From positions 2,880,001 to 2,944,000 of the forward strand of contig OZ251539.1 of assembly GCA_965243135.1 (NCBI GenBank): DNA of 64,000 nt, given 5' to 3'. The notes under the pieces are model-generated. The model was not told the DNA's origin and did not search any database. It saw only the letters and a program-made list of their open reading frames with translations. Each line of letters begins with the position of its first letter. Positions within the stretch are counted from its first letter, which is position 1. A program made the position numbers and the translations under genes. Shown piece after piece: positions 345-32,862 of this stretch. Origin of the DNA: Alphaproteobacteria bacterium (GTDB lineage: Bacteria; Pseudomonadota; Alphaproteobacteria; MPNO01; UBA830).

Positions 345-690
345 CCGCGAACGCCGGTCGCAGGCCGGCGCGCCTCTCCGTCGCCGCCAGCTGCCGTTCC
401 ACGAAGTCCGGGGAGTTGCCTCCGCCGAAGCTAAGCCGCGCGACGGCGCGCCGACCAGTCCCGCTTGCCGTGCACGGCGAGGCCCCGGAACGGCTCCTCG
501 CTTCCCAGCTCCTGCAGCGTGTCCACCAGCAAGTTCTTGCCGAACCGGCGCGGACGCGACAGGAAATAGTACTGACCCCCTCTCGACGAGGCGGCGCGCA
601 TGGTCCGTCTTGTCGACGTAGCAGCAGCCCAGCTCCCGGATTTTCCGGAGGGATGTCAAGCCGGTCGGAAGCAAGCGTCTCGTCAGAGGG
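345..690 (-). pseudogene. AAA-ATPase/PD-(D/E)XK paralogue, copy 0 (5' fragment only, frameshifted)
   Basis: Reverse strand reads LLPTGLTSLRKIRELGCCYVDKTDH...YYFLSRPRRFGK, like the intact copies; similarity is lost below about 345. Confidence 0.8.
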
Positions 691-891
691 TAGGCCGCAA
701 TGCCCGTCAAGGAAGGGGCGGAGGCCGCCGGCCCGGAGTTCCCGCGCCGACGCGTCCCGTCGGGCGGTCGGCGCGCAAGGCGGCGACCCGGCGGAAACAA
801 CGGCGGTCCCAGACGAAGGGCATGGCGACCTGCGGCGCGGTCCGCCGACGCCTTTCGCGGAGGCACCGCCTGCGCGGGACGGCTCCCGGCT

Positions 892-2436
892 TCAGACGGT
901 CTCGAACTCGAACCCGACGATGTTGCGCTCCTCCCGGCCGAACTCGATGCCGATCAGGTGAACCGGCACGCCCGGACGCCGGTACTTGTCCGCGTAGCCG
1001 CGCGCCCGAATCTGCGCCAGCGCCCGGCCTTCCGGCTTCCCGTCCGCGACCTTGAACTCGAACAGGTAGACGTTGCCGCCGTACAGGACCGTCAGGTCCG
1101 AGCGGCCGCGCGCCGTGCTCTCCTCGGCGCGGACGTCCATCCCCGCCGCCACGAAGTGCGAGTAGAACACGCTCGCGTAGTGCGCCTCGTAGCCCGCCAT
1201 CCCCGTGTTCGCGTACCACTCGTTCGGAATGCTCGCCAGAAACGCCCGGAACCGCCGCTCGAGGCCCGCGAAGTCGTTCGTCCGCATCAGGCGGCGCAGC
1301 TCCCGGCTCTCCGCCGCGACCGTGATATCCGGCGCCATCGCCTTCAGCAGGAGCGCGTTCAGGCTGCGCTTCACCTCCCGGTTCGGGTAGTCCAGCCGGA
1401 AGAGACGAACGCCCTCGTCCTGCTCTTCGCCGACGATGGTCAGGTAGCCGGTCTGGAACAAAAGCGTCTCGACGGGTATGCGGTCGATATCGATGGCCGA
1501 CAGCAGATCGTCGTCCGCGACCAGGTCCTCCAGGGCCGGCGGCGCGAACCGGCGCCGGGACAGAAGGTCGGCGAGGAAGGTCGGCGTGCCGCTCAGGAAC
1601 CAGTGGTTGCCGAACTCGTGCGTTTCGAAGAGAAGGAGGATGTCGAACGGGTTGTAGACCTTCTCCGCGCCGCGCCAGTTGTAGCCGTTGTACCAGCGCC
1701 GGACTTCGTTCCGGTCCAGGCCCTCGAGTTCCGGAGCGAAGACCGCGTCCAGTTCCGCGTCCGTGTAGCCGCAGATGGCGCCGAACCGCGGATCGAGGGT
1801 GATGTCGCGCAGGTTGTTCAGGCCCGAGAACAGGCCCGCCTGCGAGAACTTGCTCACGCCGGTAAGGAAGGCGAACCGGATATGCGCGTCGCAGTCCTTG
1901 ACGACGCTGTAGAAGCCGCGCAGGAAGTCGCGGTTGGCCAGCGCCCGTTCCCGGTCGCCGAGCGCGTCCAGGATCGGCTTGTCGTACTCGTCCACCAGCA
2001 CGACCACGCGCCGCCCGGACCGCTCGTGCAGTTCGGAGATCAGATGGTGAAGGCGGTCGGAGGCGTCCGGGTAGCCGCATCGGACGCCGGCGCGCTTTTC
2101 GGCGGCGTCGAGCTGCATCATCGCGTTCCTGTGCAGCCGGTCAGGGTCGCCGAGATTGCCGGAACCGAAACTGATCCGCACGACCGGATGGCGCGCCGAC
2201 CAGTCCCACTTGCCGTGCACGGCGAGGCCCCGGAACAGCTCTTCGCTTCCCTCGAATAACTCCTGCAGCGTGTCCACCAGCAAGCTCTTGCCGAACCGGC
2301 GCGGACGCGACAGGAAATAGTACTGACCCCCTTCGACGAGGCGGCGCACATGGTCCGTCTTGTCGACGTAGTAGCAGCCCAGCTCCCGGATTTTGCGGAG
2401 GGAGGTCAAGCCGGTCGGAAGCATGCGTCTCGTCAT
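892..2436 (-). CDS. AAA-ATPase-like (P-loop) + PD-(D/E)XK nuclease (PDDEXK_9/DUF1703-type) protein, copy 1, intact
   Basis: YYVDKT, Walker A SRPRRFGKS, Walker B LVDEYDKP, FLTGVSKF, WYNGY, YNPF, QTGYLT, and C-terminal GRSDL...LFEFK...ALAQI nuclease motifs. The ORF track starts at 2457; the promoter geometry favours ATG 2436. Confidence 0.93.
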   Translation of the reverse strand: MTRRMLPTGLTSLRKIRELGCYYVDKTDHVRRLVEGGQYYFLSRPRRFGKSLLVDTLQELFEGSEELFRGLAVHGKWDWSARHPVVRISFGSGNLGDPDRLHRNAMMQLDAAEKRAGVRCGYPDASDRLHHLISELHERSGRRVVVLVDEYDKPILDALGDRERALANRDFLRGFYSVVKDCDAHIRFAFLTGVSKFSQAGLFSGLNNLRDITLDPRFGAICGYTDAELDAVFAPELEGLDRNEVRRWYNGYNWRGAEKVYNPFDILLLFETHEFGNHWFLSGTPTFLADLLSRRRFAPPALEDLVADDDLLSAIDIDRIPVETLLFQTGYLTIVGEEQDEGVRLFRLDYPNREVKRSLNALLLKAMAPDITVAAESRELRRLMRTNDFAGLERRFRAFLASIPNEWYANTGMAGYEAHYASVFYSHFVAAGMDVRAEESTARGRSDLTVLYGGNVYLFEFKVADGKPEGRALAQIRARGYADKYRRPGVPVHLIGIEFGREERNIVGFEFETV

Positions 2437-2442
2437 CAGAAG

Positions 2443-2471
2443 AGGGTAGGCCGCCATGCCGGAACCGTCAA
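2443..2471 (-). promoter_or_regulatory. sigma70-type promoter of copy 1 (TTGACG-17 nt-TACCCT-6 nt-ATG), leaderless geometry
   Basis: The same spacing is conserved at copies 2, 5, 6 and 7; there is no Shine-Dalgarno between the -10 box and the ATG. Confidence 0.65.
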
Positions 2472-3260: not shown

Positions 3261-3879
3261 ACAAGGGCGGTTCGGGAGACTGCGGAACGGCAAACGCGGG
3301 TGGACCGGCGCTGCGACAGCCGCAGAGGCCGTCGCGTTCCAGCAGAAACGCGGGTGCCTTTCAGGCCGCCGTTGGGCTTGCGCCAGTCGAGACGTTCGCG
3401 CGCGCGACAGGTGGGTTCCGTTGCGCGAGCCGGTATGAGCAGTCACGATAATCGGCAGTTTCAGGTGCAAAATAATCAAGGATGCCGCGCTGGGAGGCGT
3501 TTCCGTTTCCTCTCGCGCCTGAGAGTGACGGGGCCGGGAAACGCCATTTTCTTTCAACGCAGCCCCGCAGCGCCATGGCGCGGCCCTGAAGGCAACCGGT
3601 GAACTCGTGGCTGCTGTCAAGAGCCTTTGATCGGGTTCTCCAAATGTCTCATGCCCGTGCACACCCGCCTACGAAGGCTGCGGTTGCGTGGTTGAACGCC
3701 GCCGCTACCGCGTGACCGGAATCGCCCTATGTTATCAACGGATTGATCGTCGCGTTCTCAGCCCCGCTCCTGGCGCGGTCTTCGACGAACAAAAATGGCT
3801 CGCTCGCGCTTCGACCACGAGATTCAGCGCCTCTGGGAAGGGCATTCCGTTGCCAGTTGGCTCAACGTATTCGGTTCTT

Positions 3880-4653
3880 TCAAGGTGTCTAGCCGCAAAA
3901 GATACTCCCCGCTCTTGTGCAGACTACGCCCGAGCTCGGCGTCGCTTCCAGCCGTTGAGGAAAGCGATCTCTTCCGCGATTTTCTGCCTCTGACGCTTCT
4001 CGACGGTCTGCACGAAGCTGGCGGCCTCCAGAAGACTGTCGCTGGTTCCCGTACAGGCGAATCCGCGGCCGAGCAACTCCACATGAAGTTCGCCGCGTTA
4101 ATGCGCGTTGACGTCGGTGATCTCCAGCTCGCCGCGCGCGCTCGGCGCGATTTCGGACGCGACGACCTCGTTGTCGTAGAAATAAAGGCCCGTAACCGCC
4201 CACTGCGACTGGGGGCGGGCGGGCTTCTCGGCGACCGCGCGGCCGGACGCGTCGAGCTCGACCACGCCGTAGCGCTCCCGGAACCCCGTAGCCGAAAACC
4301 GTCGCCCCCTTGCGCCGGGAAGCCGCGTTTCGCAATTTCTCGGTCAGGCCGTGCCCGTAGAATATGTTGTCCCCGAGGGCCAGGGCGCAGGAATCGTCGG
4401 AAGTCCCTGCCGATGAGGAAGGCCTGCGCCAGCCCTTCGGGGCGCGGCTGCACGGCATGGCGAAGCGCGAGGCCCCACTGGCTGCCGTCGCCGAGAAGCC
4501 GCTCGAAGGCCGCGGCGTGCTGCGGCGCGCAAGAATGTCCCGAATTCCCGCCAGCGTGCTCAGCGGATAGCATCGGCTTGTCGTAGACCGGCAGGAGCTG
4601 CTTGCTTACCGCGCTCGTCAGCAGGCGCGTTCCTTCCCGCCGATGCCCTTCAT
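3880..4653 (-). pseudogene. rmlA: glucose-1-phosphate thymidylyltransferase, multiply frameshifted
   Basis: ATG AAG GGC ATC start at 4653; fragments [56 protein letters not shown]. Confidence 0.88.
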
Positions 4654-5340
4654 CGCGGCGCTTCTCCGGGGAACGCGCCGCCCGCCGCCGGCCTGCGGTG
4701 CCCCTTGGCGTAGCGCTCGAGCGCTTCCTGCCGCAGGCCGCCGAACGCGGCCGGGATCCTGGCGTTGTCGAGTGCGCTGTACCGGGGGCGCAGGGCGCGG
4801 GCAGGGCGCTCGTCGCTCGCGCAGGGCGTCACGACGGCTCCGGCGAGGCGGACGATTTCGCGGGCGACCAGGTCGCCGCGCCGTCGTTGACCGCGTGATA
4901 AGGGACGCAGCCGCTCGCGAGAATCCGCAGAACGACGCGCGCCGCGTCCGCGGTGACGGTCGGCGACATGGTCTGGTCGTCGACCACCCGCAGCGCTCTC
5001 TTCCCCCTCCCGGCTATCGTTTCGACGAAATTCCCCCCCCCCCCCTTGCCGCTCGCTCCCGCCGTCCCGAACAGGGACGCCACGCGAAGGATGACGATGT
5101 TCTCGCAGTCCGGCCAGAGTTTCCCCCATCGCCCTGGAGGCGCCGTAGACGTTGACCGGCGCGAACGGATCCCGGTTCGAGGCCGGTGCGCCGGCCTCGC
5201 AGTCGTCGAGCGAGGTGAACCCCTCGGCGGTCCGTTCGGGGATTTCCGGAGGCATGAGGAAGACTCCGCGCGCCGTGAGGTTTTCCGTAAGGGCCGAGGG
5301 CGAACGGCGCGGCCGTCCTTCCCCGGCGGTTCGCGCGCCC
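4650..5340 (-). pseudogene. rmlD: dTDP-4-dehydrorhamnose reductase, multiply frameshifted
   Basis: Fragments PVNVYGASRAMGE, ILRVASLFG...[31 protein letters not shown]; its stop overlaps the rmlA start. Confidence 0.82.
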
Positions 5341-5394
5341 CGACGCCGACCGGTAGATTCCTGCGAGCGGCGGCGGCGTCTTGCCCGCGCCGTT

Positions 5395-5631
5395 CGCGCT
5401 GGCCAGCCCGGCGCGGAAGACTGTTCTCGAGCGAGCGGCTGTCCGCGCCGCAAACGGCCACGGTCGCGGCGTCGAGCCGCAGTTCGGCGCGCGCGACCCG
5501 CCAGGCGCGGTGCATGGCCGGCGTCGCCGCCCGGCTCCAGGAAGCGGCAGTGGCGGCCGCCGCGAGCGCGCGGTCGGTCGGCGCTTTTCGCGGAGGCGCC
5601 GCCTGCGTCCGAACGGCAACGGCTCCCGGCC
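5395..5631. repeat. array spacer type Y (repeated at about 17430-17636)
   Basis: A near-identical stretch gactgttct...gcaaacggccacggtcgcggcgtcgagccgcagttcgg...cgcttttcgcg lies downstream of copies 2 and 7. Confidence 0.8.
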
Positions 5632-7176
5632 TTAGACGGTCTCGAACTCGAACCCGACGATGTTGCGCTCCTCCCGGCCGAACTCGATCCCGATCAGGTG
5701 GATCGGCACGCCCGGACTCCGGTACTTGTCCGCGTAGCCGCGCTCCCGTATCTGCGCCAGCGCCCGGCCTTCCGGCTTCCCGTCCGCGACCTTGAACTCG
5801 AACAGGTAGACGCCGCCGCCGTGCAGGACCGCAAGGTCCGAGCGTCCGCGCGCCGTGCTCTCCTCGGCGCGGACGTCCATCCCCGCCGCCACGAAGTGCG
5901 AGTAGAACACGCTCGCGTAGTGCGCCTCGTAGCCTGCCATGCCCGTGTTCGCGTACCACTCGTTCGGGATGCTCGCCAGGAACGCCCGGAACAGCGCCTC
6001 GAGGCCCGCGAAGTCGTTCGTGCGCATCAGGCGGCGCAGTTTCCGGCTTCCCGCTGCGACCGTGACGTCCGGCGCCATCGCCTCCAGCAGGAGCGCGTTC
6101 AGGCTGCGCTTCACCTCATGGTTCGGGTAGTCCAGCCGGTAAAGAAGCGCGTCGTCGTCCAGTTCCTCGTCGGCGATGGTCAGGTAGCCGGTCTGGAACA
6201 GAAGCGCCTCGACGGGGATGCGGTCGACGTCGATCGCCGACAGCAACGCGTCGTCCGCGATCATGCCCTCCAGGTCCGGCGCCGCGACCTGGCGCCGCGA
6301 CAGAAGGTCGGCGAGAAAGGTCGGCGTGCCGGTCCGGAACCAGTGCGCCTCGAACCGGCGGCGCCGGAAAAGCAGCAGAATATCGTGCGGGTTGTAGACC
6401 CTCTCCGGTCCGAGCCAGTTGTAGCCGTTGTACCAGCGGCGGATCTTGTCCCGGTCCAGGCCCTCGAGTTCCGGGGCGAAGACCGCGTCCAGTTCCGCGT
6501 CCGTGTAGCCGCAGATGGCCGAGAACTCCGGCTCCAGCGTGACGTCGATCAGGTTGTTCAGGCCCGAGAACAGGCCCGCCTGCGAGAACTTGCTCACCCC
6601 CGTCAGGAAAACGAAACGGAGATGCCTGTCGTTGTCCTTGATCATCGCGTAGAAGCCGCGCAGGAAATCGCGGTTGGCCAGCGCCAGTTCCCGGTCGCCG
6701 AGCGCGTCCAGAATCGGCTTGTCGTATTCGTCGACCAGCACGACCGCCTGCTGCCCGGTGCGCTCGTGCAGGGCCTCGATCAATTCCCCGAAACGGTTCG
6801 ACGCCTCGACAGCGCCCGGTTCGAGGCCGGCGCACCTCTCCGCCGCCGCCAGCTGCCGTTCCACGCTTCTCCGAACGAAGTCCGGGGAGTCGAAATTGCC
6901 GCCGCCAAAGCTGATCCGCACGACAGGATGGCGCGCCGACCAGTCCCACCTGCCGTGTACGGCGAGATCACGAAACAGTTCCTCGCTTCCCTCGAACAGT
7001 TCCTGCAGCGTGTCCACCAGCAGGGTCTTGCCGAACCGGCGCGGACGCGACAGGAAATAGTAATCGCCCTCTTCGACGAGGCGGCGCGCATGGTCCGTCT
7101 TGTCGACGTAGTAGCAGTCCCTCGTCCGGATTTTCCGGAGGGAGGTCAAGCCGGTCGGAAGCATGCGTCTCGTCAT
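5632..7176 (-). CDS. AAA-ATPase-like + PD-(D/E)XK nuclease protein, copy 2, intact
   Basis: Same motif set as copy 1 (SRPRRFGKT, LVDEYDKP, GRSDL..LFEFK). The ORF track extends upstream to 7554, but similarity to the other copies starts at MAAYP/MTRRML. Confidence 0.93.
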   Translation of the reverse strand: MTRRMLPTGLTSLRKIRTRDCYYVDKTDHARRLVEEGDYYFLSRPRRFGKTLLVDTLQELFEGSEELFRDLAVHGRWDWSARHPVVRISFGGGNFDSPDFVRRSVERQLAAAERCAGLEPGAVEASNRFGELIEALHERTGQQAVVLVDEYDKPILDALGDRELALANRDFLRGFYAMIKDNDRHLRFVFLTGVSKFSQAGLFSGLNNLIDVTLEPEFSAICGYTDAELDAVFAPELEGLDRDKIRRWYNGYNWLGPERVYNPHDILLLFRRRRFEAHWFRTGTPTFLADLLSRRQVAAPDLEGMIADDALLSAIDVDRIPVEALLFQTGYLTIADEELDDDALLYRLDYPNHEVKRSLNALLLEAMAPDVTVAAGSRKLRRLMRTNDFAGLEALFRAFLASIPNEWYANTGMAGYEAHYASVFYSHFVAAGMDVRAEESTARGRSDLAVLHGGGVYLFEFKVADGKPEGRALAQIRERGYADKYRSPGVPIHLIGIEFGREERNIVGFEFETV

Positions 7177-7182
7177 CCGGAG

Positions 7183-7211
7183 AGGATAGGCCGCCATGCC
7201 GGAACCGTCAA
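7183..7211 (-). promoter_or_regulatory. sigma70-type promoter of copy 2 (TTGACG-17-TATCCT-6-ATG)
   Basis: Seen in the sequence; geometry conserved across copies. Confidence 0.65.
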
Positions 7212-9061: not shown

Positions 9062-9577
9062 TCAGGCGGGCTCGCAGCCGACGACGTTGCGCTCCTCGCG
9101 GCTGAACTCCACCAGGTGGACCGAACGCCCGAAGCGGCGGTACTTGTCCGCGTAGCCCTTCTCCCGCAGCTGCGCGAGCGCGGTCCCCTCCCGCCCGCGC
9201 TCCACCACCTTGAACTCGAACAGGTAGACGCGCCCGCCGGCGCGGATCGCCATGTCGGCGCGCCCCCGGCTGCCGCTGTCCTCCGCCACCGGCTCTAGGC
9301 CCTCCATCAGGAAGCAGCTGTGGATGACGCTCGCGTAGTGGGCCTCGTACTTCGCGACCGGGCTGTTCATGTACCACTGGTGCGGGGCGAAGACGCCGCG
9401 GAACAGGGTTTCGAGACGCTCGAAGTCGTTCGCCGCCAGCACCCAGCCGCAGGTTCTCCGTCTCCTCGCGGGCCTCGTCCGGGAGCAGTTCTTCCAGCAG
9501 GGCCTCGCCCAGGCTCTGGCGCACCTCGAGGTTCGGGTAGTCCAGCCGGTAGCGCCCGTCCTCCTCGCCGGCGATGG
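9062..9577 (-). pseudogene. AAA-ATPase/PD-(D/E)XK paralogue copy 3, 3' exon (divergent nuclease domain)
   Basis: YEAHYASVIHSCF, AEDSGSRGRADMAI, YLFEFKVVE, ALAQLREKGYADKY; resumes at CC ATC GCC after the intron; contains frameshifts. Confidence 0.82.
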
Positions 9578-10374
9578 GTAGAGTCGAGGACTGGCGCGTT
9601 AGCTTTAGGGTCCGGGTTCCGTCGCTTTCGCTCCGGGCCTCAGTCCGGCTCCCGTGGCCACGTTTCCAGTCCCCGCTCTCCGAACCGGACGTGCGGATTT
9701 CCCGCGCCTCCAGCCCTCGCCCACGGATGGATTGTCAGCGTTCCCAAAAACGGCCGGTTTTCCGGACCCGGGAGTTGCACCGTCTCCCATATTTTCCGCC
9801 TGTTCTCGCTTTCCAACCCGTCGCCGAACCTGTTTACGCCTCGACGACCCCGGCCTCTCGACCGGGTTCCTTCGCTTGTGACGCTTCCGGGATCTCTGGC
9901 ATGTAGTCGGTTGTTAGGCATAGCCAGATCCCTTCTCCCTTGCGGCGCCCTTCCTCGCGCCCCTTTCCTCCGCCGGCGTTACCCGGCTTCTCCGGTACTA
10001 CGGGCCTCTCCGCCACCCGCCGGCCTGCCCCTCGCGGGGTTCCGGTTGACTCGTGCGCGTCACCGACAGGGCTTCCCGTGTTGCTGCTTCCTTCATCTTC
10101 CATGCGTGCCGACACCCCGGCGGAAACGGTCGGTGCTCTTGTCGTTCTCTTCCCGACCGTCGGCGGCTTTCCCCTAGGAGGGTCAGCTCCCGCATTGACC
10201 GTTTCGAGGCCTGGTTCACTGCTCGTTTCGGCCCGCATGTTCGCTGAGCGGCCTTCGCCGCCCTTTCCCAGAGTGCTTCAGCCTACCCTCCGTAAACCGC
10301 CCTGGCCGCTACCAACCGGAACGACAGTTGTTGGGTGGGATTCGCACCCACGAAAGCGCCTTTCCACGGCGCAC
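9578..10374 (-). mobile_element. group II intron, ORF-less (intron-encoded RT deleted), 797 nt
   Basis: 5' end GTGCG at 10374; 3' end ...CCTCGACTCTAC at 9578; domain V-like GCGGGAAATCCGCACGTCCGGTTCGGAGAGCGGGG; removing it rejoins CTC A|CC ATC (QTGYLTIAGEE). Confidence 0.9.
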
Positions 10375-11335: not shown

Positions 11336-11399
11336 GAGGGTAGGCCGCCGCGCCCGTCAAGAAGTCGGCGGCGGCAGGCCTGTCCGCGTCCCCTGGCGC

Positions 11400-13490: not shown

Positions 13491-13511
13491 GTAGGCCGCC
13501 ATGCCCGTCAA

Positions 13512-15408: not shown

Positions 15409-15414
15409 CTGAAG

Positions 15415-15443
15415 AGGGTAAGCCGCCATGCCGAAGCCGTCAA
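15415..15443 (-). promoter_or_regulatory. sigma70-type promoter of copy 5 (TTGACG-17-TACCCT-6-ATG)
   Basis: Seen in the sequence; conserved geometry. Confidence 0.65.
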
Positions 15444-15797: not shown

Positions 15798-17337
15798 TCA
15801 GGCGGTCTCGAACTCGAACCCGACGATGTTGCGCTCCTCCCGGCCGAACTCCACCCCGATCAGGTGGACCGGCACGCCCGGACGCCGGTACTTGTCCGCG
15901 TAGCCGCGCTCCCGAATCTGCGCCAGCGCCCGACCTTGCGGCTTCCCGTCCGCGACCTTGAACTCGAACAGATAGACGTTGCCGTTGTACAGGAGCGTCA
16001 GGTCCGAGCGGCCGCGCGCCGTGCTCTCCTCCGCACGGACGTCCATGCCCGCCGCCACGAAGTGCGAATAGAACACGCTCGCATAGTGAGCCTCGTAGCC
16101 CGCTATGCCCGTGTTCGCGTACCACTCGTTCGGAATGCTCGCCAGGAACGCCCGGAACAGATTCTCGAGGCCCGCGAAGTCGTTCGCCCGCATCAGGCGG
16201 CGCAACTCCCGGCTCCCCGCCGCGACCGCGACGTCCGGCGCCATCGCCTTCAGCAGAAGCGCGTTCAGGCTGCGCTTCACCTCCTGGTTCGGGTAGTCCA
16301 GCCGGTAGAGGTGCGTGTCCTCGTCCCGCTCCTCGTCGACGATGGTCAGGTAGCCGGTCTGGAACAGCAACGCCTCGACGGGAATGCTGTCGACGTCGAT
16401 GACCGACAGCAGGTCGTCGCCCGCGGCCAGGTCCTCCAGGGCCGGCGGCGCGAACCGGCGCCGCGACAGAAGGTCGGCGAGGAAGGTCGGCGTGCCGGTC
16501 CGGAACCAGTGCTCCTCGAACTCGCGGCGCCGGAAAAGCAGAAGGACATCGTACGGGTTGTAGAGTTTCTCCGCGCCTCGCCAGTTGTAGCCGTTGTACC
16601 AGCGGCGGACCTTGTCCCGGTCCAGGCCCTCGAGTTCCGGGGCGAAGACCGCGTCCAGTTCCGCGTCCGTGTAGCCGCAGATGGACGAGAACTCCGGCTC
16701 CAGCGTGACGTCGATCAGGTTGTTCAGGCCCGAGAACAGGCCCGCATGCGAGAACTTGCTCACCCCCGTCAGGAAAACGAAACGGAGATGCCTGTCGTTG
16801 TCCTTGATCATCGCGTAGAAGCCGCGCAGGAAGTCGCGGTTGGCAAGCGCCAGTTCCCGGTCGCCGAGCGCGTCCAGAATCGGCTTGTCGTATTCGTCCA
16901 CCAGCACGACCACGCGTCGCCCGGCGCGCTCGTGCAGGGCCTCGATCAATTCCCCGAAACGGTTCGACGCCTCGGCAGCGCCCGGTTCGAGGCCGCCGCG
17001 CCTCTCCGCCGCCGCCAGCTGCCGTTCCACGCTTCTCCGAACGAAGTCCGGGGAGTCGAAATTGCCGCCGCCGAAGCTGATCCGCACGACGGCGCGCCGA
17101 CCAGCCCCACCCGTCGTGCACCGCGAGATCACGAAACAGCTCCTCGCTTCCCTCGAACAGTTCCTGCAGCGTGTCCACCAGCAGGGTCTTGCCGAACCGG
17201 CGCGGACGCGACAGGAAATAGTACTGGCCCCCTTCGACGAGGCGGCGCACATGGTCCGTCTTGTCGACGTAGTAGCAGTCCAACTCCCGGATTTTCCGGA
17301 GAGAGGTCAAGCCGGTCGGAAGCATGCGTCTCGTCAT
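15798..17337 (-). pseudogene. AAA-ATPase/PD-(D/E)XK paralogue copy 6 (single frameshift near 17090; possibly intact in vivo)
   Basis: The N-terminus MTRRMLPTG...SRPRRFGKT is in one frame and VVRISFGG...FEFETA in another; a 5-nt deletion relative to copy 2 lies in WSARHPVV. Confidence 0.85.
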
Positions 17338-17343
17338 CTGGAG

Positions 17344-17372
17344 AGGATAGGCCGCCATGCCGGAACCGTCAA
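17344..17372 (-). promoter_or_regulatory. sigma70-type promoter of copy 6 (TTGACG-17-TATCCT-6-ATG)
   Basis: Seen in the sequence. Confidence 0.65.
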
Positions 17373-17429
17373 GGAGGAGGCGGAGTCCGTCGGCCGAACG
17401 TCGGCCCGGAGTTCCCGTGTCGGCGCGGG

Positions 17430-17636
17430 AGACTGTTCTTGAGAGAGCGGCTATCCGTGCCGCAAACGGCCACGGTCGCGGCGTCGAGCCGCAGTTCGGC
17501 GCGCGCGACCCGCCAGGCGCGGTGCATGGCCGGCGTCGCCGCCCGGCTCCAGGAAGCGGCAGTGGCGGCCGCCGCAAGCGCGCGGTCGGTCGGCGCTTTT
17601 CGCGAAGGCGCCGCCTGCGCGGGACGGCTCCCGGCC
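17430..17636. repeat. array spacer type Y, second copy
   Basis: Matches about 5415-5631. Confidence 0.8.
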
Positions 17637-19159
17637 TTAGACGGTCTCGAACTCGAACCCGACGATGTTGCGCTCCTCCCGGCTGAACTCCACCCCGATC
17701 AGGTGGACCGGCACGCCCGGACGCCGGTACTTGTCCGCGTAGCCGCGCTCCCGAATCTGCGCCAGAGCCCGGCCTTCCGGCTTCCCGTCCGCGACCTTGA
17801 ATTCGAACAGGTAGACGCCGCCGCCGTGCAGCACCGCAAGGTCCGAACGGCCGCGCGCCGTGCTCTCCTCCGCGCGGACGTCCATCCCCGCCGCCGCGAA
17901 GTGCGAGCACGCTCGCGTAGTGGACCTCGTAGCCCGCCATGCCCGTGTTCGCGTACCACTCGTTGCTCGCCAGGAACGCCCGGAACCGCCGCTCGAGGCC
18001 CGCGAAGTCGTTCGTCCGCATCAGGCGCCGCAACTCCCGGCTCTCCGTCGCGACCGCGACGTCCGGCGCCATCGCCTCCAGCAGGAGCGCGTTCAGGCTG
18101 CGCTTCACCTCATGGTTCGGGTAGTCCAGCCGGTAGAGGGGCGCGTCCTCGTCCCGCTTCTCGTCGGCGACGGTCAGGTAGCCGGTCTGGAACAGCAGCG
18201 CCTCGACGGGAATGCGGTCGACGGCCGACAGCAGGTCGTCGTCCGCGATCATGCCCTCCAGGGCCGGCGCCGCGACCCGGCGCCGCGCCAGAAGGTCGAC
18301 GAGAAAGGTCGGCGTGCCGCTCTGGAACCAGTACGGGCGGAATCTGCGCTTGTCGAACAGCAGCAGGATGTCGTGCGGATTGTAGACCCTCTCCGGTCCG
18401 AGCCAGTTGTAGCCGTTGTAGCAGCGGCGGACCTTGTCCCGGTCCAGGCCGTCGAGTTCCGGGGCGAAGACCGCGTCCAGCTCCGCGTCGGTGTAGCCGC
18501 ATACGGCGCCGTAGCGCTCGTCCAGCGTGATGTCGTTCAGGTTGTTCAGGCCCGAGAACAGGCCCGCCTGCGAGAACTTGCTCACCCCCGTCAGAAAAAC
18601 GAAGCGGAGATGCTCGTCGCAATCCTTGATCGTTCCGTACAGGCTGCGCAAGAAGTCGCGGTTGGCCCGCGCCAGTTCCCGGTCGCCGAGCGCGTCCAGG
18701 ATCGGCTTGTCGTACTCGTCCACCAGAACGACCGCCCGCTGCCCGGTGCGCTCGTGCAGGGCCTCAATCAATTCCCCGAAACGGTTCGACGCCTCGACGG
18801 ATCCCGGTTCGAGGCCGGCGCGCCTCTCCGCCGCCGCCAGCTGCCTTTCCACGGTTATCCGAACCCCGTCCGGGACGACGAAATTGCCCCTGCCGAAGCT
18901 GAGCCGCACGACGGCGCGCCGACCAGTCCCACTCGCCGTGCACGGCGAGGCCCCGGAACAGTTCCTCGCTTCCCTCGAACAGCTTCTGCAGCGTGTCCAC
19001 CAGAAGAGTCTTGCCGAACCGCCGCGGACGCGACAGGAAATAGTACTTGCCCCTCTCGACGAGGCGGCGCGCATGGTCCGTCTTGTCGACGTAGTAGCAG
19101 TCCATCCCCCGGATCTCCCGGAGGGAGGAAAAGCCGATCGGAAGCATGCGTTTCGTCAT
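17637..19159 (-). pseudogene. AAA-ATPase/PD-(D/E)XK paralogue copy 7 (two frameshifts plus small in-frame deletions)
   Basis: MTKRMLPIGFSSLREIRGMDCYYVDKT...; middle in the 15652..19074 frame; C-terminus MDVRAEES...FEFETV in ORF 17637..17885. Confidence 0.85.
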
Positions 19160-19165
19160 TCGAAG

Positions 19166-19194
19166 AGGGTAGGCCGCCGCGCCGGAGCCGTCAA
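19166..19194 (-). promoter_or_regulatory. sigma70-type promoter of copy 7 (TTGACG-17-TACCCT-6-ATG)
   Basis: The upstream ATG seen in other copies is GCG here, which supports the downstream ATG as the real start. Confidence 0.65.
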
Positions 19195-19555
19195 GGAGAG
19201 CGTCGGGCGCGCGTCAATTTCTTTGCATTGACGCCAGGAAGGGCCTGCGCTTTCTGCATGTACGCGCCGTGTCCGCGTCCCAAGACTTGGAAACCATTCT
19301 GCGGCCGGCGTCTCCGCCGATTGTCCGGAGATCTTCGCCGGCGGACCGCCCAATTCCGCAGATGCCCAAACCCGGTTGCGCAATGGGACCGGGGCATGGG
19401 CCGTGCCTTCAACTGACTCGAAAGGTGAACGGCGAGACGGGTCCGCTGCCGCGGAAACGGCCGTTCCCGACGAAGGGCATGGCGACCTGCGGCGCGGTCG
19501 GCCGGCGCCTTTCGCGGAGGCGCCGCCTGCGCCCGAACGGAACCGGCTCCCGGCT
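19195..19555. repeat. array spacer type X, third copy
   Basis: Near-identical to 13512-13863 and 15444-15797. Confidence 0.88.
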
Positions 19556-20975
19556 TCAGACGGTCTCGAACCCGACGATGTTGCGCTCCTCCCGGCCGAA
19601 CTCGATCAGGTGGACCGGCACGCCCGGACGCCGGTACTTGTCTGCGTAGCCGCGCTCCCGAATCTGCGCCAGCGCCCGGCCTTGCGGCTTCCCGTCCGCG
19701 ACCTTGAACTCGAACAGGTAGACGCCGCCGCCGTACAGGACCGCAAGGTCCGAACGGCCGCGCGCCGTGCTCTCCTCGGCGCGGACGTCTATCCCCGCCG
19801 CCGCGAAGTGCGAGCACGCTCGCGTAGTGCGCCCCCGCCAAGCCCGTGTTCGCGTACCACTCGTTGCTCGCCAGGAACGCCCGGAACAGCCGCTCGAGGC
19901 CCGCGAAGTCGTTCGCCAGGCGGCGCAGCTCCCGGCTCTCCGCCGCGACCGCGACGTCCGGCGCAGCAGGGGCGCGTTCAGGCTGCGCTTCACGGTTCGG
20001 GTAGTCCAGCCGGTAGAGGGGCGCGTCCTCGTCCTGCTCTTCGCCGGCGACGGTCAGGTAGCCGGTCTGGAACGGCAACGCCTCGACGGAAATGCGGTCG
20101 ACGGCCGACAGCAGGTCGTCGTCCGCGAACATGCCCTCCAGGGCCGGCGCCGAGATCCGGCGCCGCGCCAGCGTCTCGACCATGAAGGTCGGCGTACCGC
20201 TCAGGAACCAGTAGTTGCCGAACCCGCGCTCGGCGAGCAGCAGCAGGATGCCGAACGGATTGTAGAGCCTCTCCGGCCCGCGCCAGTTGTAGCCGTTGTA
20301 CCAGCGGCGGATTTTCTCCCGGTCCAGGCCATCGAGTTCTGGAGCGAAGACCGCGTCCAGCTCGTCGTCCATGTAACCGCAAATGTCCGAGAACTCCGGC
20401 GCCAGCGTGATGTCGCGCAGGTTGTTCAAGCCAGAGAACAGGCCCGCCAACTTGCTCACCCCCGTCAGGAAAACGAAACGGAGATGCCTGTCGTTGTCCT
20501 TGATCATTGCGTAGAAGCCGCGCAGGCAGTTGCGGTTCGCCAGTTCCCGGTCGCCGAGCGCGAACCGGCTTGTCGTACTCGTCCACCAGCACGACCGCCC
20601 GCTGCCCGGTGCGCTCGTGCAGGACCAATTCCCCGAAACGGTTCGACGCCTCGACGGGTTCGAGGCCGGCGCGCCTCTCCGTCGCCGCCAGCTGCCGTTC
20701 CACGAGGTCCGGGGAGTTGCCGCCGCCGAAGCTGATCCGCACGACGGCGCGCTGACCAGTCCCACCCGCCGTGCACGGCGAGGCCCCGGAACAACTCCTC
20801 GCTTCCCAGCTCCTGCAGCGTGTCCGCCAGCAAGCTCTTGCCGAACCGGCGCGGACGCGACAGGAAATAGTACTTGCCCCACGAGGCGGCGCGCATGCTC
20901 CGTCTTGTCGACGTAGTAGCAGTCCATCCCCCGGATCTCCCGGAGGGAGGAAAAGCCGAGCATGCGTTTCGTCAG
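19556..20975 (-). pseudogene. AAA-ATPase/PD-(D/E)XK paralogue copy 8 (many small deletions)
   Basis: Motif fragments GMDCYYVDKT, SRPRRFGKS, DEYDKP, WYNGYNW, GRSDL..LFEFK are spread over three frames. Confidence 0.85.
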
Positions 20976-21037
20976 AGAGTAGGCCGCCGCGCCCGTCAAG
21001 AAGTCGGCGGCGGCAGGCCTGTCCGCGTCCCCTGGCG

Positions 21038-23242
21038 CTACCTGTGCCCCGTTTTGCTGGACTGACAGTATTCATCTTGAAGTTCCTGAAGGAAAGCCAT
21101 AGCGGCGAGTTGAGCGTAGCCGACCGGTTGCGAATCTGGCGGGTTGCGCTTGAAGTGGCCGCCCAGGGCGGCGATCAGGGAGACGGCCTCTCCGAGATTT
21201 TTCGGCGCGTGCTTGCGGCGCGGCGAAGATCGCCAGCATCCGGAGTTCGACGTCCGAGAACGGGATCTCGGGCGGCAGGTCGGACAATTCCCGTCCGGGG
21301 CGGGCCCGAATCCGCCAGGCGACGACCATTGCGGCGGCGCGCTGCAGGCGCTCGGCCGTCCGGTTCTCCAGGCAGCCGGACTTCAGGACCCGGAGATAAT
21401 CTTCAATTCCCCAACGCAGGCCGTACCACGGCGTTCGGCGTCGTCGCCATTCTCGACCGGCAGCGTCGTCAACAGGAACCGCCGGTCGGCTTCGGTTGGC
21501 GGGTTTTTCTCGCGGACATGCATGATCGTCACCTCGACGGGCGCCTTGCCCTTCGCCGGCAACTCGACCTTGAGGTAACGCAGCGCGACCGCGGCCTGAC
21601 GGGGCTCTCGCACGGCCTTCGCGGCCTGCTTGCTGGCGCGCGCGCTCAAACGCTTGAGGACGCGCTTGCCCCGCGCCGGGCTCTTCCGCACCTTGTCGAA
21701 CAGCTTGTCGGCATCGTCCTTGCCGAGAACCCGGTTCGTCTTCGCCCACACCAGGAGTTCCACTCCCGGCGTCCGCTCGCGGCACTCGACGAACGGCGAA
21801 GTCCGCCTCCCGGGACGCCGACCGCCTGCACGCCGTCGAGCGCCGCGGCAGCCTCGGCGCTGCGGCAGCCTCGGCGCTGCGGCAGCCTCGGCGCTGCGGC
21901 CCTCGGCCCTTCTTCTTCTCGCGAGGCTTGTCCTTCTCCGCGCCCGGCTGCGGCGCGTCGAACGCCGCCCGCAGAACCCCAAGCGGCAGCCCTTCCGCGT
22001 TCACCGCGGCGTGCAGGTTCAGACCGCGGGCCCCGGCGCCGGTCTGGTCCCCAACCCTTCCCCCACTTCGCGAAGTTCAGCGCGCTGCTGTCCTGCACGC
22101 ACAGCACCGTCCTTTCCCCCTGCCCGCAGCGTCTGGCGCCGGTGCAGGATGTCCTCCACCGTCACCGCTTCGCTGTCCGGCGTGCAGACGGTAGTAAGCC
22201 CTGGCTCGGTTCCCCCTCGCGGCGCCCGTGAATGCCGACGCCTCCGCCTGGCGCCAGGTCACCAGGCGCGCATCCCGGCGCACCGCCGAACTCCTGCTCC
22301 GCCCAGTTCTCCCGACCGGCGCCAACCTCCAACGGCACAAGTGGCGCGCGAGGCTCGCGCGCCCGCCAGTCCGCGTTCGTGACAGCCTTCGGCGTTGCCG
22401 CGTGGCCCTGTCGCCCCCGGCCGGCGGTCTCGCCACGCCGCCGCCCGAAAACTCGTTCCCGCATGCTGGTCTTTGTCTCCGGACGGGCGGTAGCGTTCCT
22501 CGAAATCGCCCCCCACCCTGCGGACCACGCCGCCCAGCACATGCGAGGTGCGGCACTCGACGCCGGGCCGGAAAGCGGCGCAAGCCGGCCGCCCGGTGCA
22601 AATGGGCGCGCCTTCCCGCGTCGTCCCAGCCGAAGGTCGCGGCACTCGAGCCTGTGCGCAGAGGCTGCGAACCCGACGGCCCCCAGCCAGCCATGCGCCG
22701 ACCCTGCCAGGTGCCGCAATTGACAACCGACCAACGGACCGGCGCCGCGCTCCTCCTCCGGCATCGTGTTCCATGCGCCGCTCGTCACCGGCGCCAGCTC
22801 CGGACCCTCGACCGCACCGACTTCCTCCGGTACGCTCTTCGGCGGAGGAACCGGTTCCGCAAGACGCCGCGGGCGCCGTGCGCCGCCGCCCGTCGGCAAC
22901 GGCAGCGAAATCCGCCCCGCCGCCTCGAACTCCGCCAACGCCTTCAGGCAGCCCGCTCGCTGCAGGCGGCCAAGCCCGTCCCGAAACCCGAACGCTACGC
23001 GACCTCGCTGCGACGAGCGAAGACCTCGTTCGCCAGCAAGCCTTGCAAGCGCGTAAAATCGCCCTGAAGGCTTTGCCGAATCTGATTCTGAACCTCCATG
23101 CCGGGCACCGTAGCGAATCGGCTGGCCAGAGTTCAGCAAAACGGGGCAACGGCAGGGCAAGCCGAAGGTCAAGGCCGACGACGACGGCAAGCCGCGGGCG
23201 ACGTCTCCGGAACCTCGCAGCGCGGCTCCCGGGAGCCACAAC
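21038..23242 (-). mobile_element. degenerate IS4-family element with a DUF4338-fused transposase
   Basis: N-terminal DUF4338-like fragments (PLVGCQLRHL, HGWLGAVGFAASAHRL), Tn5-like ENWAEQEFGGA, VLCVQDSSALNF, EGLPLGVLRA, WYGLRWGIEDYLRVLKSGC. Confidence 0.8.
21845..21900. repeat. 17-bp tandem repeat (gcggcagcctcggcgct) x3 inside the IS4 transposase
   Basis: Directly visible in the sequence. Confidence 0.75.
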
Positions 23243-23935
23243 TTCTCCCGGTCCAGGCCCTCGAGTTCCGGGGCGAAGACCGCGTCCAGCTCCGCGTCAG
23301 TGTAGCCGCAGATGGACGAGAACTCCGGCTCCAGCGTGACGCAGGTTGTTCAGGCCCGAGAACAGGCCCGCATGCGAGAACTTGCTCACGCCGGTAAGGA
23401 AGGCGAACATGCGCGTCGCAGTCCTTGACGACGCTGTAGAAGCCGCGCAGGAAGTCGCGGTTGGCCAGCGCCCGTTCCCGGTCGCCGAGCGCGGACCGGC
23501 TTGTCGTACTCGTCCACCAGCACGACCGCACGCCGCCCGGCGCACTCGTGCAGTTCGGAGATGGTGAAGGCGGTCGGAGGCGTCCGGGTAGCCGCATCGG
23601 ACGCCGGCGCGCTTTTCGGCGGCGTCGAGCTGCATCATCGCGTTCCTGTGCAGCCGGTCGGGATCGTCGAGCTTGCCGGAACCGAAGCTGATCCGCACGA
23701 CGGTGCGCCGACCAGTCCCACCCGCCGTGCACGGCGAGGCCCCGGAACAGCCCCTCGCTCCCCTCGAACAGCTCCTGCAGCGTGTCCACCAGCAGGCTCT
23801 TGCCGAACCGGCGCAGACGCGACAGGAAATAGTACTTACCCCCCTTCGACGAGGCGGCGCGCATGGTCCGTCTTGTCGACGCAGTCCATCCCCCGGATCT
23901 CCCGGAGGGAGGAAAAGCCGAGCATGCGTTTCGCC
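23243..23935 (-). pseudogene. AAA-ATPase/PD-(D/E)XK paralogue copy 9 (5' half, truncated by the IS4 element at LDREK)
   Basis: YYFLSRLRRFGKS, PDRLHRNAMMQLDAAEKR (copy 1 type), FLTGVSKFSHAGLFSG; frameshifted. Confidence 0.82.
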
Positions 23936-24079
23936 GCGAGAGTAGGCCGCCCCGCCCGTCAAGGAGGAGGCGGGTCTGCAGGCCGAACGCCGCGCCGGAG
24001 TTCCCACGCCTCCCCTGGCGGCGCGTCCCGTCGTGCCGCCTGCCGAAACGTCCGAACGGGACGTCGGCGGCTCCCGGCT

Positions 24080-25552
24080 TCAGACGGTCTCGAACTCGAA
24101 CCCGACGATGTTGCGCTCCTCCCGGCCGAACTCGATGCCGATCAGGTGGACCGGCACGCCCGGACTCCGGTACTTGTCCGCGTAGCCGCGTTCCCGAATC
24201 TGCGCCAGCGCCCGGCCTTCCGGCTTCCCGTCCGCGACCTTGAACTCGAACAGGTAGACGCTGCCGCCGTACAGGACCGCAAGGTCCGAACGGCCGCGCG
24301 CCGTGCTCTCCTCCGCGCGGACGTCCATCCCCGCCGCCACGAAGTGCGAGTAGAGCACGCTCGCATAGTGCGCCTCGTAGCCCGCCATGCCCGTGTTCGC
24401 GTACCACTCGTTCGGAATGCTCGCCAGGAACGCCCGGAACAGCCGCTCGAGGCCCGCGAAGTCGTTCGCCCGCATCAAGCGGCGCAACTCCCGGCTCCCC
24501 GCCGCGACCGCGACGTCCGGCGCCATTGCCTCCAGCAGAAGCGCGTTCAGGCTGCGCTTCACCTCATGGTTCGGGTAGTCCAGCCGGTAAAGAAGCGCGT
24601 CGTCGTCCAGTTCCTTGTCGGCGATGGTCAGGTAGCCGGTCTGAAACAAAAGCGCCTCGACGGGAATGCGGTCGATGTCGATGGCCGACAGCAGCGCGTC
24701 GTCCGCGATCATGCCCTCCAGGGCCGGCGCCGAGACCCGGCGCCGCGACAGAAGGTCGGCGAGGAAGGTCGGCGTGCCGGTCCGGAACCAGTGCGCCTCG
24801 AACTGGCGGCGCCGGAAAAGCAGCAGGATGTCGTGCGGGTTGTAGACCCTCTCCGATCCGAGCCAGTTGTAGCCGTTGTACCAGCGCCGGACCTTGTCCC
24901 GGTCCAGGCCATCGAGTTCCGGAGCGAAGACCGCGTCCAGCTCCGCATCCGTGTAGCCGCAGATGGCCGAGAACTCCGGCTCCAGCGTGACATCGATCAG
25001 GTTGTTCAGGCCCGAGAACAGGCCCGCCTGCGAGAACTTGCTCACCCCCGTCAGAAAAACGAAACGGAGCTGCCTGTCGCAGGCCTTGATCGCCCCGTAC
25101 AGGCTGCGCAGGAAGTCGCGGTTGGCCAGCGCCAGTTCCCGGTCGCCGAGCGCGTCCAGAATCGGCTTGTCGTATTCGTCGACCAGAACGACCGCCCGCT
25201 GCCCGGTGCGCTCGTGCAGCGCCTCGATCAATTCGTGGAAACGGACCGCCGCCCCGGCGGGGCCCGGTTCGAGGCCGGCGCGCCTCTCCGCCGTCGCCAG
25301 CTGCCTTTCCACGGTTCCCCGAACTCCGTCCGGGCCGTCGAAGCGGCCCACGCCGCTGAAATCCAGCCGCACGACCGGGTGGCGTGCCGACCAATCCCAC
25401 CTGCCGTGCACGGCGAGGCCCCGGAACAGCTCCTCGCTCCCCTCGAACAACTCCTGCAGCGTGTCCACCAGCAGGCTCTTGCCGAACCGGCGCGGACGCG
25501 ACAGGAAATAGTACATAAGGCACGGGCAGTCGTAGCGCCGACCAACGTTCAC
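24080..25552 (-). CDS. AAA-ATPase-like + PD-(D/E)XK nuclease protein, copy 10, open frame with a replaced N-terminus
   Basis: All motifs from YYFLSRPRRFGKS to FEFETV are present; the usual first ~35 aa (LPTG..YYVDKT) are replaced by MNVGRRYDCPCLM. Confidence 0.85.
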   Translation of the reverse strand: MNVGRRYDCPCLMYYFLSRPRRFGKSLLVDTLQELFEGSEELFRGLAVHGRWDWSARHPVVRLDFSGVGRFDGPDGVRGTVERQLATAERRAGLEPGPAGAAVRFHELIEALHERTGQRAVVLVDEYDKPILDALGDRELALANRDFLRSLYGAIKACDRQLRFVFLTGVSKFSQAGLFSGLNNLIDVTLEPEFSAICGYTDAELDAVFAPELDGLDRDKVRRWYNGYNWLGSERVYNPHDILLLFRRRQFEAHWFRTGTPTFLADLLSRRRVSAPALEGMIADDALLSAIDIDRIPVEALLFQTGYLTIADKELDDDALLYRLDYPNHEVKRSLNALLLEAMAPDVAVAAGSRELRRLMRANDFAGLERLFRAFLASIPNEWYANTGMAGYEAHYASVLYSHFVAAGMDVRAEESTARGRSDLAVLYGGSVYLFEFKVADGKPEGRALAQIRERGYADKYRSPGVPVHLIGIEFGREERNIVGFEFETV

Positions 25553-29667: not shown

Positions 29668-29687
29668 GAAGCGCGGGAGGAAGGAAC

Positions 29688-32850: not shown

Positions 32851-32862
32851 GAGGAGGTCGCG

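Follow-up and report, generated by a model that had tools for sequence, protein, structure and literature searches.

The 64,000-nt window analyzed here, positions 2.880–2.944 Mb of the single 6.10-Mb contig (completeness 98.8%) of the genome (G000) of a sponge-associated alphaproteobacterium, carries at 345–25552 an array of genes for proteins that join an AAA-ATPase_like domain (PF09820) to a PDDEXK_9 nuclease domain (PF08011), the architecture formerly called DUF1703. This array is real: a long-standing cluster of stand-alone gene cassettes, most of them decayed. The present study tentatively favors the view that the cassettes belong to a repertoire of ATP-gated nucleases for genetic conflict. 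Comparison of the window by tblastn with P0001, the 521-aa product of window 892–2457 on the minus strand (the query for all tblastn searches and the reference for residue numbers), gave 22 high-scoring segment pairs (HSPs), every one on the minus strand, that span 452–25516. These group as 12 homologous pieces representing 11 genes, three of which (copies 2, 3, and 6) are intact (Table 1). At the curated Pfam cut-offs, PF09820 is matched by nine of ten window frames and PF09820 together with PF08011 by five of the ten. P0001 itself matches the full PF09820 profile (E 1.1e-59, 202 bits, cut-off 26.1) and PF08011 (E 1.4e-18, 67.2 bits, cut-off 25.5), in the N-to-C order of the DUF1703 family, and the intact gene products, of 514–521 aa, share this architecture. 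Chance is excluded as the source of the Pfam and tblastn matches.

The preliminary description of this DNA had proposed 11 head-to-tail minus-strand copies of one AAA-ATPase_like/PDDEXK_9 gene in a birth-and-death locus. All 11 positions were recovered, on the minus strand only, with one additional piece at 10373–11348 that proved to be exon 1 of copy 4, and the Pfam matches above cut-off in the window frames bear out the domain assignment; only three copies are intact, however, and not all are contiguous, since decayed insertion sequence (IS) remnants, rml pseudogenes, and repeated spacers lie in between. Birth and death remains an apt description of the locus, as the three intact copies stand beside a graded series with 1, 4, 9, and 18 short deletions and beside truncated copies. 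Pairwise nucleotide identities among the window copies are 85.7–93.3%, and the array is therefore not one sequence collapsed or duplicated in assembly. At its two ends, the frame of copy 1 (3–866) matches PF09820 profile positions 1–35, and copy 11 has neither the promoter-like element described below nor residues 1–44, which include the invariant D32-K33-T34, so that its PF09820 match begins at profile position 33.

The array is one ordinary site of a genome-wide family and not a special locus. A profile search counting paralogues across the genome and in relatives, as the preliminary description had suggested, was carried out. Searches of G000 returned 236 HSPs (tblastn, P0001) and 152 PF09820 matches, and the resulting catalogue holds 166 DUF1703 loci: 97 intact (an open reading frame of 505–522 aa counted from the conserved ATG), 29 that are broken along their full length, and 40 that are fragments. 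Within the 166, four loci besides the 97 would be intact once a group II intron is spliced out. The 166 loci occupy 78 sites, comprising 42 singletons and 36 arrays, and 28 of the 36 arrays are one-stranded; the window array is the second largest, after that of 16 loci at 1.906–1.953 Mb. Altogether the family covers 219,698 bp, or 3.6% of G000, at a GC content of 0.662 (genome, 0.650).

Among 41 related genomes searched, G000 included, PF09820 was found in 5 and was absent from 36, the relatives ranging from 0 to 23 matches. Within the genus, matches number 23 in G004, 9 in G002 (at four loci, each of them broken), 1 in G003 (also broken), and none in the 220-contig assembly of G001; G036, which belongs to the same order but to a different family, has 9. 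Farther afield, P0001 matches 17,345 clusters (50% identity) at E ≤ 0.001, and a scan of species-representative genomes yielded 394 DUF1703-encoding stretches. The best 80 of these 394 are 57–63% identical and lie, often several per genome, in metagenome-assembled genomes (MAGs) that include Gammaproteobacteria, Latescibacterota, Vicinamibacterales, Binatia, and Gemmatimonadota; five MAGs of other phyla have 7–30 PF09820 matches each. In a FastTree phylogeny of 209 full-length proteins (rows shorter than 480 aa left out), 95 of the 97 intact G000 copies form one clade with support 1.0, and the sequences of G004 (18), G036 (7), and other phyla (87) fall outside it in clades of their own. Protein identity within G000 is 59–98% (median 71%) and between G000 and the others 50–67%. 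The G000 set is thus a lineage-specific expansion, about four times the largest that we found in print (25 paralogues, in Cardinium). The remaining branch of the family in G000 consists of two adjacent copies at 1565071–1568752, 41% identical to P0001, which form a separate lineage outside the 95-copy clade and do not carry the conserved promoter-like element. Copies from different phyla are 64–95% identical and those of a single MAG are not monophyletic, indicating horizontal transfer among those organisms. DUF1703 proteins of a Thermodesulfobacteriota MAG and a Binatia MAG (L010 and L014) are 95% identical, pointing to very recent horizontal transfer of the gene.

How the copies die is strikingly uniform. 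Broken window copies differ from intact copy 6 almost only by exact 5- or 6-nt deletions at recurring positions. Across the genome, the gaps in 44 broken copies are concentrated at 5 nt (69 gaps), 6 nt (116), and 7 nt (11), with lengths of 1–3 nt accounting for just 8, and 42 of these copies have at least one short deletion of this kind; the 97 intact copies contain 59 six-nt gaps and no five-nt gap at all. The same spectrum occurs in five unrelated repeat families of the window. A dead NTP-transferase duplicate at 3891–4838, one of the rml-type pseudogenes, has 16 gaps relative to its intact parent just upstream of the window, all of 5–7 nt and all in the dead copy, at a substitution divergence of about 4.6%, and a decayed IS copy has about 28 gaps in 980 nt. 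The scars are as dense as one per 35–60 nt at 3891–4838, 11350–12260, and 21909–22890 and in all broken DUF1703 copies. They were seen again in contigs of runs from at least three studies: contigs of X1 and X5 match the IS sequence at 21933–22924, deletions included, with 0 differences, and those of X6 and X7 do so with 2–3 substitutions and no gaps. Because independent contigs reproduce them, the scars are not a consensus artefact of this assembly. No microhomology excess was detected at 54 unique deletion sites relative to 5000 random placements, and 1142 deletion contexts revealed no sequence motif, only a mild A/T enrichment of the lost words. G000 has no Ku gene, which makes classical end-joining unlikely. 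Gaps of 5–6 nt are absent from 19 G004 and 7 G036 copies, and a few occur in 5 broken G002 and G003 copies. All G002 DUF1703 loci (C2 309124–309710, 2658627–2659213, and 2761232–2761818; C1 665825–666411) are split at PF09820 positions 70/85, a site that coincides with the commonest 5-nt deletion hot spot of G000, nt 269–297. The 5–6-nt bias is a mutational signature that could reflect a novel activity in cutting or repairing DNA. A search of the literature, supplements excluded, returned no paper on a 5–6-nt deletion bias and none on a DUF1703 expansion in a sponge symbiont.

Against this background of decay, the number of intact genes is informative. The dead rml copy acquired 16 deletions at about 4.6% divergence, so copies standing at a median dS (synonymous divergence) of 0.35 would not be open without selection; deletions accrue fast in dead DNA, and the 97 open frames must therefore be held open by selection. 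What is retained includes the catalytic apparatus. At least 95% of the 97 intact copies retain each of RPRRFGK, DEYD, FLTGVS, YNP, and the nuclease E-F-K, and at least 80% retain the motif II Asp; across 108 sequences E445 is invariant and D454, E467, and K469 are at least 90% conserved (PD-(D/E)XK motifs I–III). The same motifs, with the atypical Walker A RPRRFGK(S/T) and the Walker B DEYD, are those reported for the DUF1703 family in the accessible portion of Knizewski 2007 (PMC1913061). Over 4656 pairs of intact copies, median dN (nonsynonymous divergence) is 0.20 and median dN/dS 0.53. The ratio falls to about 0.2 in windows of the ATPase core, and a 20-codon window from residue 368 reaches a pN/pS (ratio of nonsynonymous to synonymous differences per site) of 1.19, or 1.26 after Jukes–Cantor correction; this window sits, in the AlphaFold2 model, in the helical linker ahead of the nuclease. 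When window copies are compared in pairs, blocks identical at about 98% lie next to blocks identical at about 80%, in alternation, a mosaic pattern that indicates gene conversion among paralogues. For 81 of the 97 intact copies the nearest paralogue by dN lies more than 100 kb away, and simple local tandem duplication is thus insufficient to account for the family. Block duplication is visible in the twin stretches 1.9108–1.9140 and 1.9209–1.9241 Mb. The closest of the 4656 pairs has dN 0.014 and dS 0.055, and there are no identical or near-identical copies.

The duplicated unit appears to include more than the reading frame. An ATG occurs at the position of P0001 Met8 in 97 of 98 full-length copies, and the approximately 45 nt upstream are conserved as DNA: TTGACG, 17 nt, TAC(T/C)CT, 6 nt, and then the ATG, with TTGACGG present upstream of 75 of the 98. 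Downstream, 55–130 nt 3′ of the stop codon are conserved within subfamilies, and neighboring cassettes lie as near to each other as 93 nt. This conservation suggests that each cassette may have its own promoter and give rise to a leaderless or nearly leaderless message. Frames on the plus strand (e.g., 700–2259) were considered as an antisense overlapping gene and rejected as shadow frames, being free of stops in 69 of the 97 intact copies and in 104 of 131 control genes of similar length.

One copy of the array, copy 4, is interrupted by a group II intron that lies in the sense orientation and, like most copies of this intron in DUF1703 genes, has no open reading frame. RF02003 (group-II-D1D4-4) matches at 10221–10353 with 66 bits (gathering threshold 49), identifying domains D1–D4, and two matches stand below threshold: RF02005 (D1D4-6) at 30.1 bits and, over the full model length, RF00029 (D5-D6) at 27.5 bits (gathering threshold 40). 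Identical boundaries, GUGCG...AC (GUGUG...AC at 2.67 Mb), occur at six loci, where exon joining restores FQTGYL|TI; the FQ[TS]GY site is kept in 93 of the 97 intact copies. Outside the window, the intron loci are at 1.150, 1.934, 2.665–2.669, 3.619, and 4.120 Mb, and at 1.924 Mb only the 5′ domain matches. The intron measures 797 nt in the window, 861–868 nt at four loci, and 3571 nt at 2.67 Mb, where it contains a maturase remnant. Splicing would give frames of 534 and 540 aa at 1.93 and 4.12 Mb, and at the 1.15- and 3.62-Mb loci the exons are uninterrupted and in frame with each other, so that four more genes may be functional via splicing. About 12–15 copies of the intron 5′ domain were counted in G000, together with four GIIM maturase matches, one within the 3571-nt intron and one beside an intron 5′ end at 4.81 Mb. 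All four runs aligned include contigs that join 9577 to 10375/10377, most likely derived from intron-less paralogues. For a bacterial gene present in many copies, a group II intron within a conserved coding motif is unusual.

The predicted structure of the protein supplies the basis for a functional proposal. AlphaFold2, run on P0001 with a diverse 108-row alignment, returned a model with a pLDDT (predicted local distance difference test) of 93.8 and a pTM (predicted template modeling score) of 0.91, superseding an earlier 31-row run with a pLDDT of 67.9. The model was compared by VIA-align with the top 1000 Foldseek chains, and Foldseek agrees with the outcome. Residues 11–368 best match SSO1545 (2fna) and PAB2304 (2qen), with Z 15.9 and a root-mean-square deviation (rmsd) of 3.8–4.0 over 279–282 aligned residues. 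They are followed by resistosomes of plant nucleotide-binding leucine-rich-repeat receptors (NLRs; Z 13.3–13.9), CED-4 (13.1), ORC2 (12.5), and Apaf-1 (12.4) and, lower, by BrxC (Z 11.4), Avs3 (11.3), and Avs5 (10.7). Residues 305–521 match the PD-(D/E)XK modules of Wolbachia CidB (Z 12.2, rmsd 2.9) and CinB (Z 10.9), with rmsd values of 2.8–2.9. The four parts of the DUF1703 architecture, namely an AAA+ base, a lid or helical part, a helical linker, and a restriction-endonuclease-like fold, are all found in the model. The protein is accordingly predicted to consist of a P-loop nucleoside triphosphatase (NTPase) of the origin recognition complex (ORC)/signal transduction ATPases with numerous domains (STAND)-like type, with nucleotide-binding, helical, and winged-helix parts (residues ~11–370), a three-helix linker, and a C-terminal PD-(D/E)XK nuclease. 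The Z values of 10.7–13.9 to Avs3, Avs5, the resistosomes, and CED-4 are equaled or bettered by that to the ORC-like PF01637 proteins (15.9), and the fold alone cannot part ORC-like from STAND.

We propose that the NTPase would serve as an ATP-dependent switch licensing the nuclease to cut nucleic acid and that target choice would reside in the variable winged-helix and linker surface. The approximately 100 diversified paralogues would then constitute a repertoire for genetic conflict, that is, defense against phages, plasmids, or transposons. The family itself grows by duplication of single cassettes and of multi-gene blocks, with patches exchanged by gene conversion; intact copies are kept open by selection, and unneeded ones die mostly by 5–6-nt deletions. 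A conflict or defense role is the function that we favor, though tentatively and short of calling it probable, because a switch-type NTPase is coupled to a nuclease, a constant core is combined with a variable patch, and the locus dynamics are like those of receptor clusters. An immune function is plausible, and both the architecture and the dynamics of the loci would seem to parallel NLR and Avs receptor clusters. G000 offers about 100 natural, selectively kept paralogues with a constant and a variable part, a graded set of dead copies, and a high-confidence model, so that function is directly testable.

Several observations weigh against this proposal. Overall dN/dS is about 0.5, not above 1, and the GC bias at third codon positions in family genes (0.90) may lower dS and inflate the ratios. 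No fewer than 69 of the 166 loci (42%) are dead, so many copies are dispensable, and one 5-nt deletion site is common to 9 copies, indicating that dead copies were also duplicated or spread; intron-bearing copies, with their boundaries checked, likewise lie at six distant loci. The monophyly of the G000 copies could derive partly from concerted evolution rather than from recent birth. A scan of 700–2700 for sigma-70 promoters and terminators gave zero of each, and the −10 hexamer agrees with TATAAT at three of six positions, the promoter reading resting on conservation only. No repeat-type sensor (tetratricopeptide repeat [TPR], leucine-rich repeat [LRR], or WD40-like) is present in the Pfam matches or in the 521-aa model, which ends in the nuclease. 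Three intact copies match none of 5027 PADLOC models (E ≤ 0.01/0.001), and P0001 has no NCBIfam match and matches no solved structure (PDB) by sequence.

The strongest alternative, which we consider unlikely but serious, is a selfish gene family, whose cassettes multiply for their own sake (the nuclease cutting rival or empty sites and repair copying the cassette) or ride segmental duplications in a symbiont genome rich in repeats and under weak selection; the host would gain nothing. This explanation suits the expansions that arose independently within G000, G004, and G036 and, in the accessible part of the published account, in Cardinium (PMC6387759). It also suits the horizontal transfer implied by the cross-phylum identities (64–95%) and the non-monophyletic MAG copies, the 81 of 97 copies with distant nearest paralogues together with the mosaic gene conversion, the 42% of loci that are dead, and the richness of G000 in IS elements and group II introns. 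Conserved catalytic motifs are also found in transposases, where selection acts on the element itself. That dead copies spread cuts both ways: spread does not need the copy's own product, which tells against the defense proposal, but a product not needed in cis also counts against the selfish explanation. A search of the flanks of the 97 copies detected no terminal repeats, target duplications, or clean empty sites. Flank pairing gave 322 raw pairs, all confounded by tandem neighbors, and 18 after masking, with inconsistent boundaries 73–570 nt from the gene and no common end; the flanks of the one singleton searched, L081, have no DNA match in G001–G004 beyond the gene itself. Moreover, there are no near-identical copies (closest dN 0.014, dS 0.055) and thus no recent burst, and the GC content of the family (0.662) equals that of the genome (0.650).

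Export of the proteins as effector nucleases against the animal host or rival microbes, the role suggested for the DUF1703 proteins of Cardinium, appears improbable. It would fit expansion in host-associated bacteria, and the stretch is contained in sponge metagenome runs: their contigs align to it, and runs so labeled, from studies other than that of the best-matching run, contain 24–32% of the sampled words of window 11500–21400. There are precedents in Cardinium and Rickettsia, where, in the part of the report that is accessible, 10 of the 25 Cardinium paralogues have a predicted signal peptide (PMC6387759), and the nuclease domain is structurally nearest to the Wolbachia CidB and CinB modules. 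However, in the G000 proteins the first NTPase strand and its D-K-T motif follow directly on the conserved N-terminus, without any extension, and no cognate immunity or antidote gene lies beside the cassettes, whose spacers go down to 93 nt. More improbable still is that the DUF1703 nucleases themselves make staggered double-strand cuts 5–6 nt apart and that the thousands of 5–6-nt scars in dead genes, IS copies, introns, and dead family members are their repaired footprints, left by genome policing against duplicated or invading DNA; if true, the system would be a bacterial analogue of repeat-induced mutation, acting through deletions. An assembly artefact, through concatenation or mis-joining of dispersed copies or strains, is the least credible explanation: the family is highly repetitive and the short-read-type contigs of four runs are pieces of 110–902 nt, none spanning a unit, but the assembly is a single 6.1-Mb contig that is 98.8% complete, the array copies differ by 7–14%, the unique inter-copy segments 11370–11772, 12008–12250, and 21933–22834 recur with 0 differences in X1 and X5 (two studies), and comparable arrays exist at 35 other G000 sites and in other genomes, so that concatenation is unlikely.

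Table 1. Features of the window (window coordinates; residue numbers refer to P0001)
Feature	Position	Strand	Description
Copy 1	452–701	−	5′ fragment, residues 1–87, frameshifted; two tblastn HSPs in different frames, 79–89% identity
Copy 2	892–2457	−	Intact (P0001); likely true start at the conserved ATG, 2436
Promoter-like element, copy 2	2443–2471	−	TTGACG 2471–2466, 17-nt spacer, TACCCT 2448–2443, 6 nt, ATG 2436
Duplicated rml-type pseudogenes (NTP_transferase, RmlD)	3824–5959	−	Pfam fragments; between copies 2 and 3
Copy 3	5632–7197	−	Intact; 81% aa identity to copy 2; Pfam and tblastn
Copy 4, exon 2 (nuclease part)	9071–9577	−	tblastn residues 390–517
Group II intron, ORF-less	9578–10374	−	797 nt; starts GUGCG, ends AC; inside the Thr codon of FQTGYLTI, copy 4
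Copy 4, exon 1 (ATPase part)	10375–11348	−	Six 5–7-nt deletions; three tblastn frames
Partial IS copy	11350–12160		Repeat match to the IS at 21030–23160
Copy 5	12162–13502	−	Residues 1–457; nine 5–7-nt deletions; no 3′ end
Repeated spacer	13505–13865	−	94–97% mutual identity among the three spacers
Copy 6	13864–15429	−	Intact; 84% aa identity to copy 2; Pfam and tblastn
Repeated spacer	15430–15800		As above
Copy 7	15798–17358	−	Full length; dead by a single 5-nt deletion, nt 269 (residue ~90)
Copy 8	17637–19177	−	Full length; four 5–6-nt deletions, two of them 5 nt
Repeated spacer	19180–19560		As above
Copy 9	19562–20987	−	Full length; eighteen 5–7-nt deletions; most decayed of all copies
Decayed IS copy (DruA-like, Tnp_DNA_bind, DDE_Tnp_1 transposase)	21030–23160	.	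Between copies 9 and 10
Copy 10	23200–23940	−	Fragment, residues 7–267; seven short deletions
Copy 11	24080–25516	−	Open frame, residues 45–521; 5′-truncated (132-nt 5′ gap); adjoins the 75%-GC island
Candidate system PDC-M65A + PDC-M65B (PADLOC)	53965–57320		E 3.8e-25 and 3.5e-60; 44%-GC islet; neither gene has a Pfam match
DruE-like helicase, 1614 aa (DEAD, Helicase_C, MZB/DUF1998)	59146–63990	−	Druantia DruE profiles, E 1.5e-79; partner genes would lie past the end of the window

The surroundings of the array differ from it in composition. The GC outliers of the window are the DNA to its right (26–52 kb, ~0.75) and an islet at 54–58 kb (0.44), not the array. Within the high-GC DNA, 25581–39350 encodes a secretin, two PilB/T2SSE-type ATPases, a Shufflon_N (PilV-like) protein, and TcpQ, as identified by Pfam, and the 75%-GC island as a whole (25581–53000; genome, 65%) also contains several large proteins without a Pfam match. 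From its gene content, the island is best read as a type IV pilus or secretion cluster. The preliminary description had placed a putative conjugation island here, but neither a relaxase nor a coupling protein was found among the 10 island frames scanned; its defense islet has been recovered by PADLOC as PDC-M65A/B and the DruE-like helicase, 28–34 kb from the array. Copy 11 ends exactly where the high-GC island starts, so the array was probably there first, and the island either entered it or took the place of some of it. The window has no tRNA gene. The IS that lies decayed between copies 9 and 10 is about 2.4 kb long, with its DruA-like, Tnp_DNA_bind, and DDE_Tnp_1 transposase domains in two overlapping frames. 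Intact copies occur in G000 at 4.2035–4.2059, 4.6154–4.6177, and 5.0086–5.0109 Mb, and the three give identical alignments to the window copy, which suggests that the IS was recently active in G000; the window IS copies are heavily decayed.

Several known systems resemble the G000 family in part. To our knowledge, no function has been assigned to the widespread DUF1703 proteins since the family was described in 2007. For the NTPase part, the best structural matches are SSO1545 and PAB2304, archaeal AAA+ proteins of the PF01637 type, and a link between the DUF1703 N-terminus and PF01637 was already drawn in the accessible portion of Knizewski 2007 (PMC1913061). These proteins differ in having no nuclease domain, in sharing only 12% identity, and in being themselves of unknown function. 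The nuclease modules of CidB (7fiv) and CinB (7et0) are alike, but these proteins have no NTPase and act with a partner, CidA or CinA, and no partner gene lies beside the cassettes. PF09820 is listed for RdrA of the RADAR system in a review table (PMC10952713, part accessible), and the RdrA ring (8hr8_F) is a weak Foldseek match (E 3.7e-3, probability 0.60); the G000 family, by contrast, has no PADLOC match to RdrA, no RdrB-like deaminase was seen next to its cassettes, and its effector is a fused nuclease.

The STAND and NLR proteins (Avs3, 8dgc; Avs5, 9jap; the resistosomes 9h2l and 9cc9; CED-4 and Apaf-1) have a similar NTPase–helical–winged-helix fold (Z 10.7–13.9), and a nuclease effector is also carried by some Avs proteins. 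Like NLR loci, moreover, the G000 family is clustered, subject to birth and death, gene-converted, and endowed with a hypervariable patch. It is unlike them in possessing no TPR, LRR, or WD40 repeats, in having its nuclease at the C-terminus rather than the N-terminus, in its Walker A RPRRFGK(S/T), in its length of about 515 aa, and in matching no Avs or NLR model of PADLOC. Should the family prove to be a receptor-like defense repertoire, we would know of no bacterium with a larger set of immune-type paralogues, and its organization would be like that of plant NLR clusters.

The closest parallel at the level of the gene family is Cardinium hertigii cCpun, whose 25 DUF1703 paralogues were described as one of the highest counts on record (Siozios et al. 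2019, PMC6387759, part accessible); nine copies are recorded for Methanospirillum in the portion of Steczkiewicz 2012 that is accessible. Cardinium shares with G000 the two Pfam domains and their architecture, divergent paralogues that cluster by genome, recombination, and the absence of an assigned function. G000 differs in the number of its genes (97 intact among 166 loci, as opposed to 25 paralogues), in their closeness (median identity 71%, as opposed to a mean of 39%), in its tandem one-strand arrays and promoter-like element, and in its 6.1-Mb genome, which is not that of a reduced endosymbiont. The group II intron and the decay by 5–6-nt deletions are likewise features of G000 that do not appear in the accessible part of the Cardinium account.

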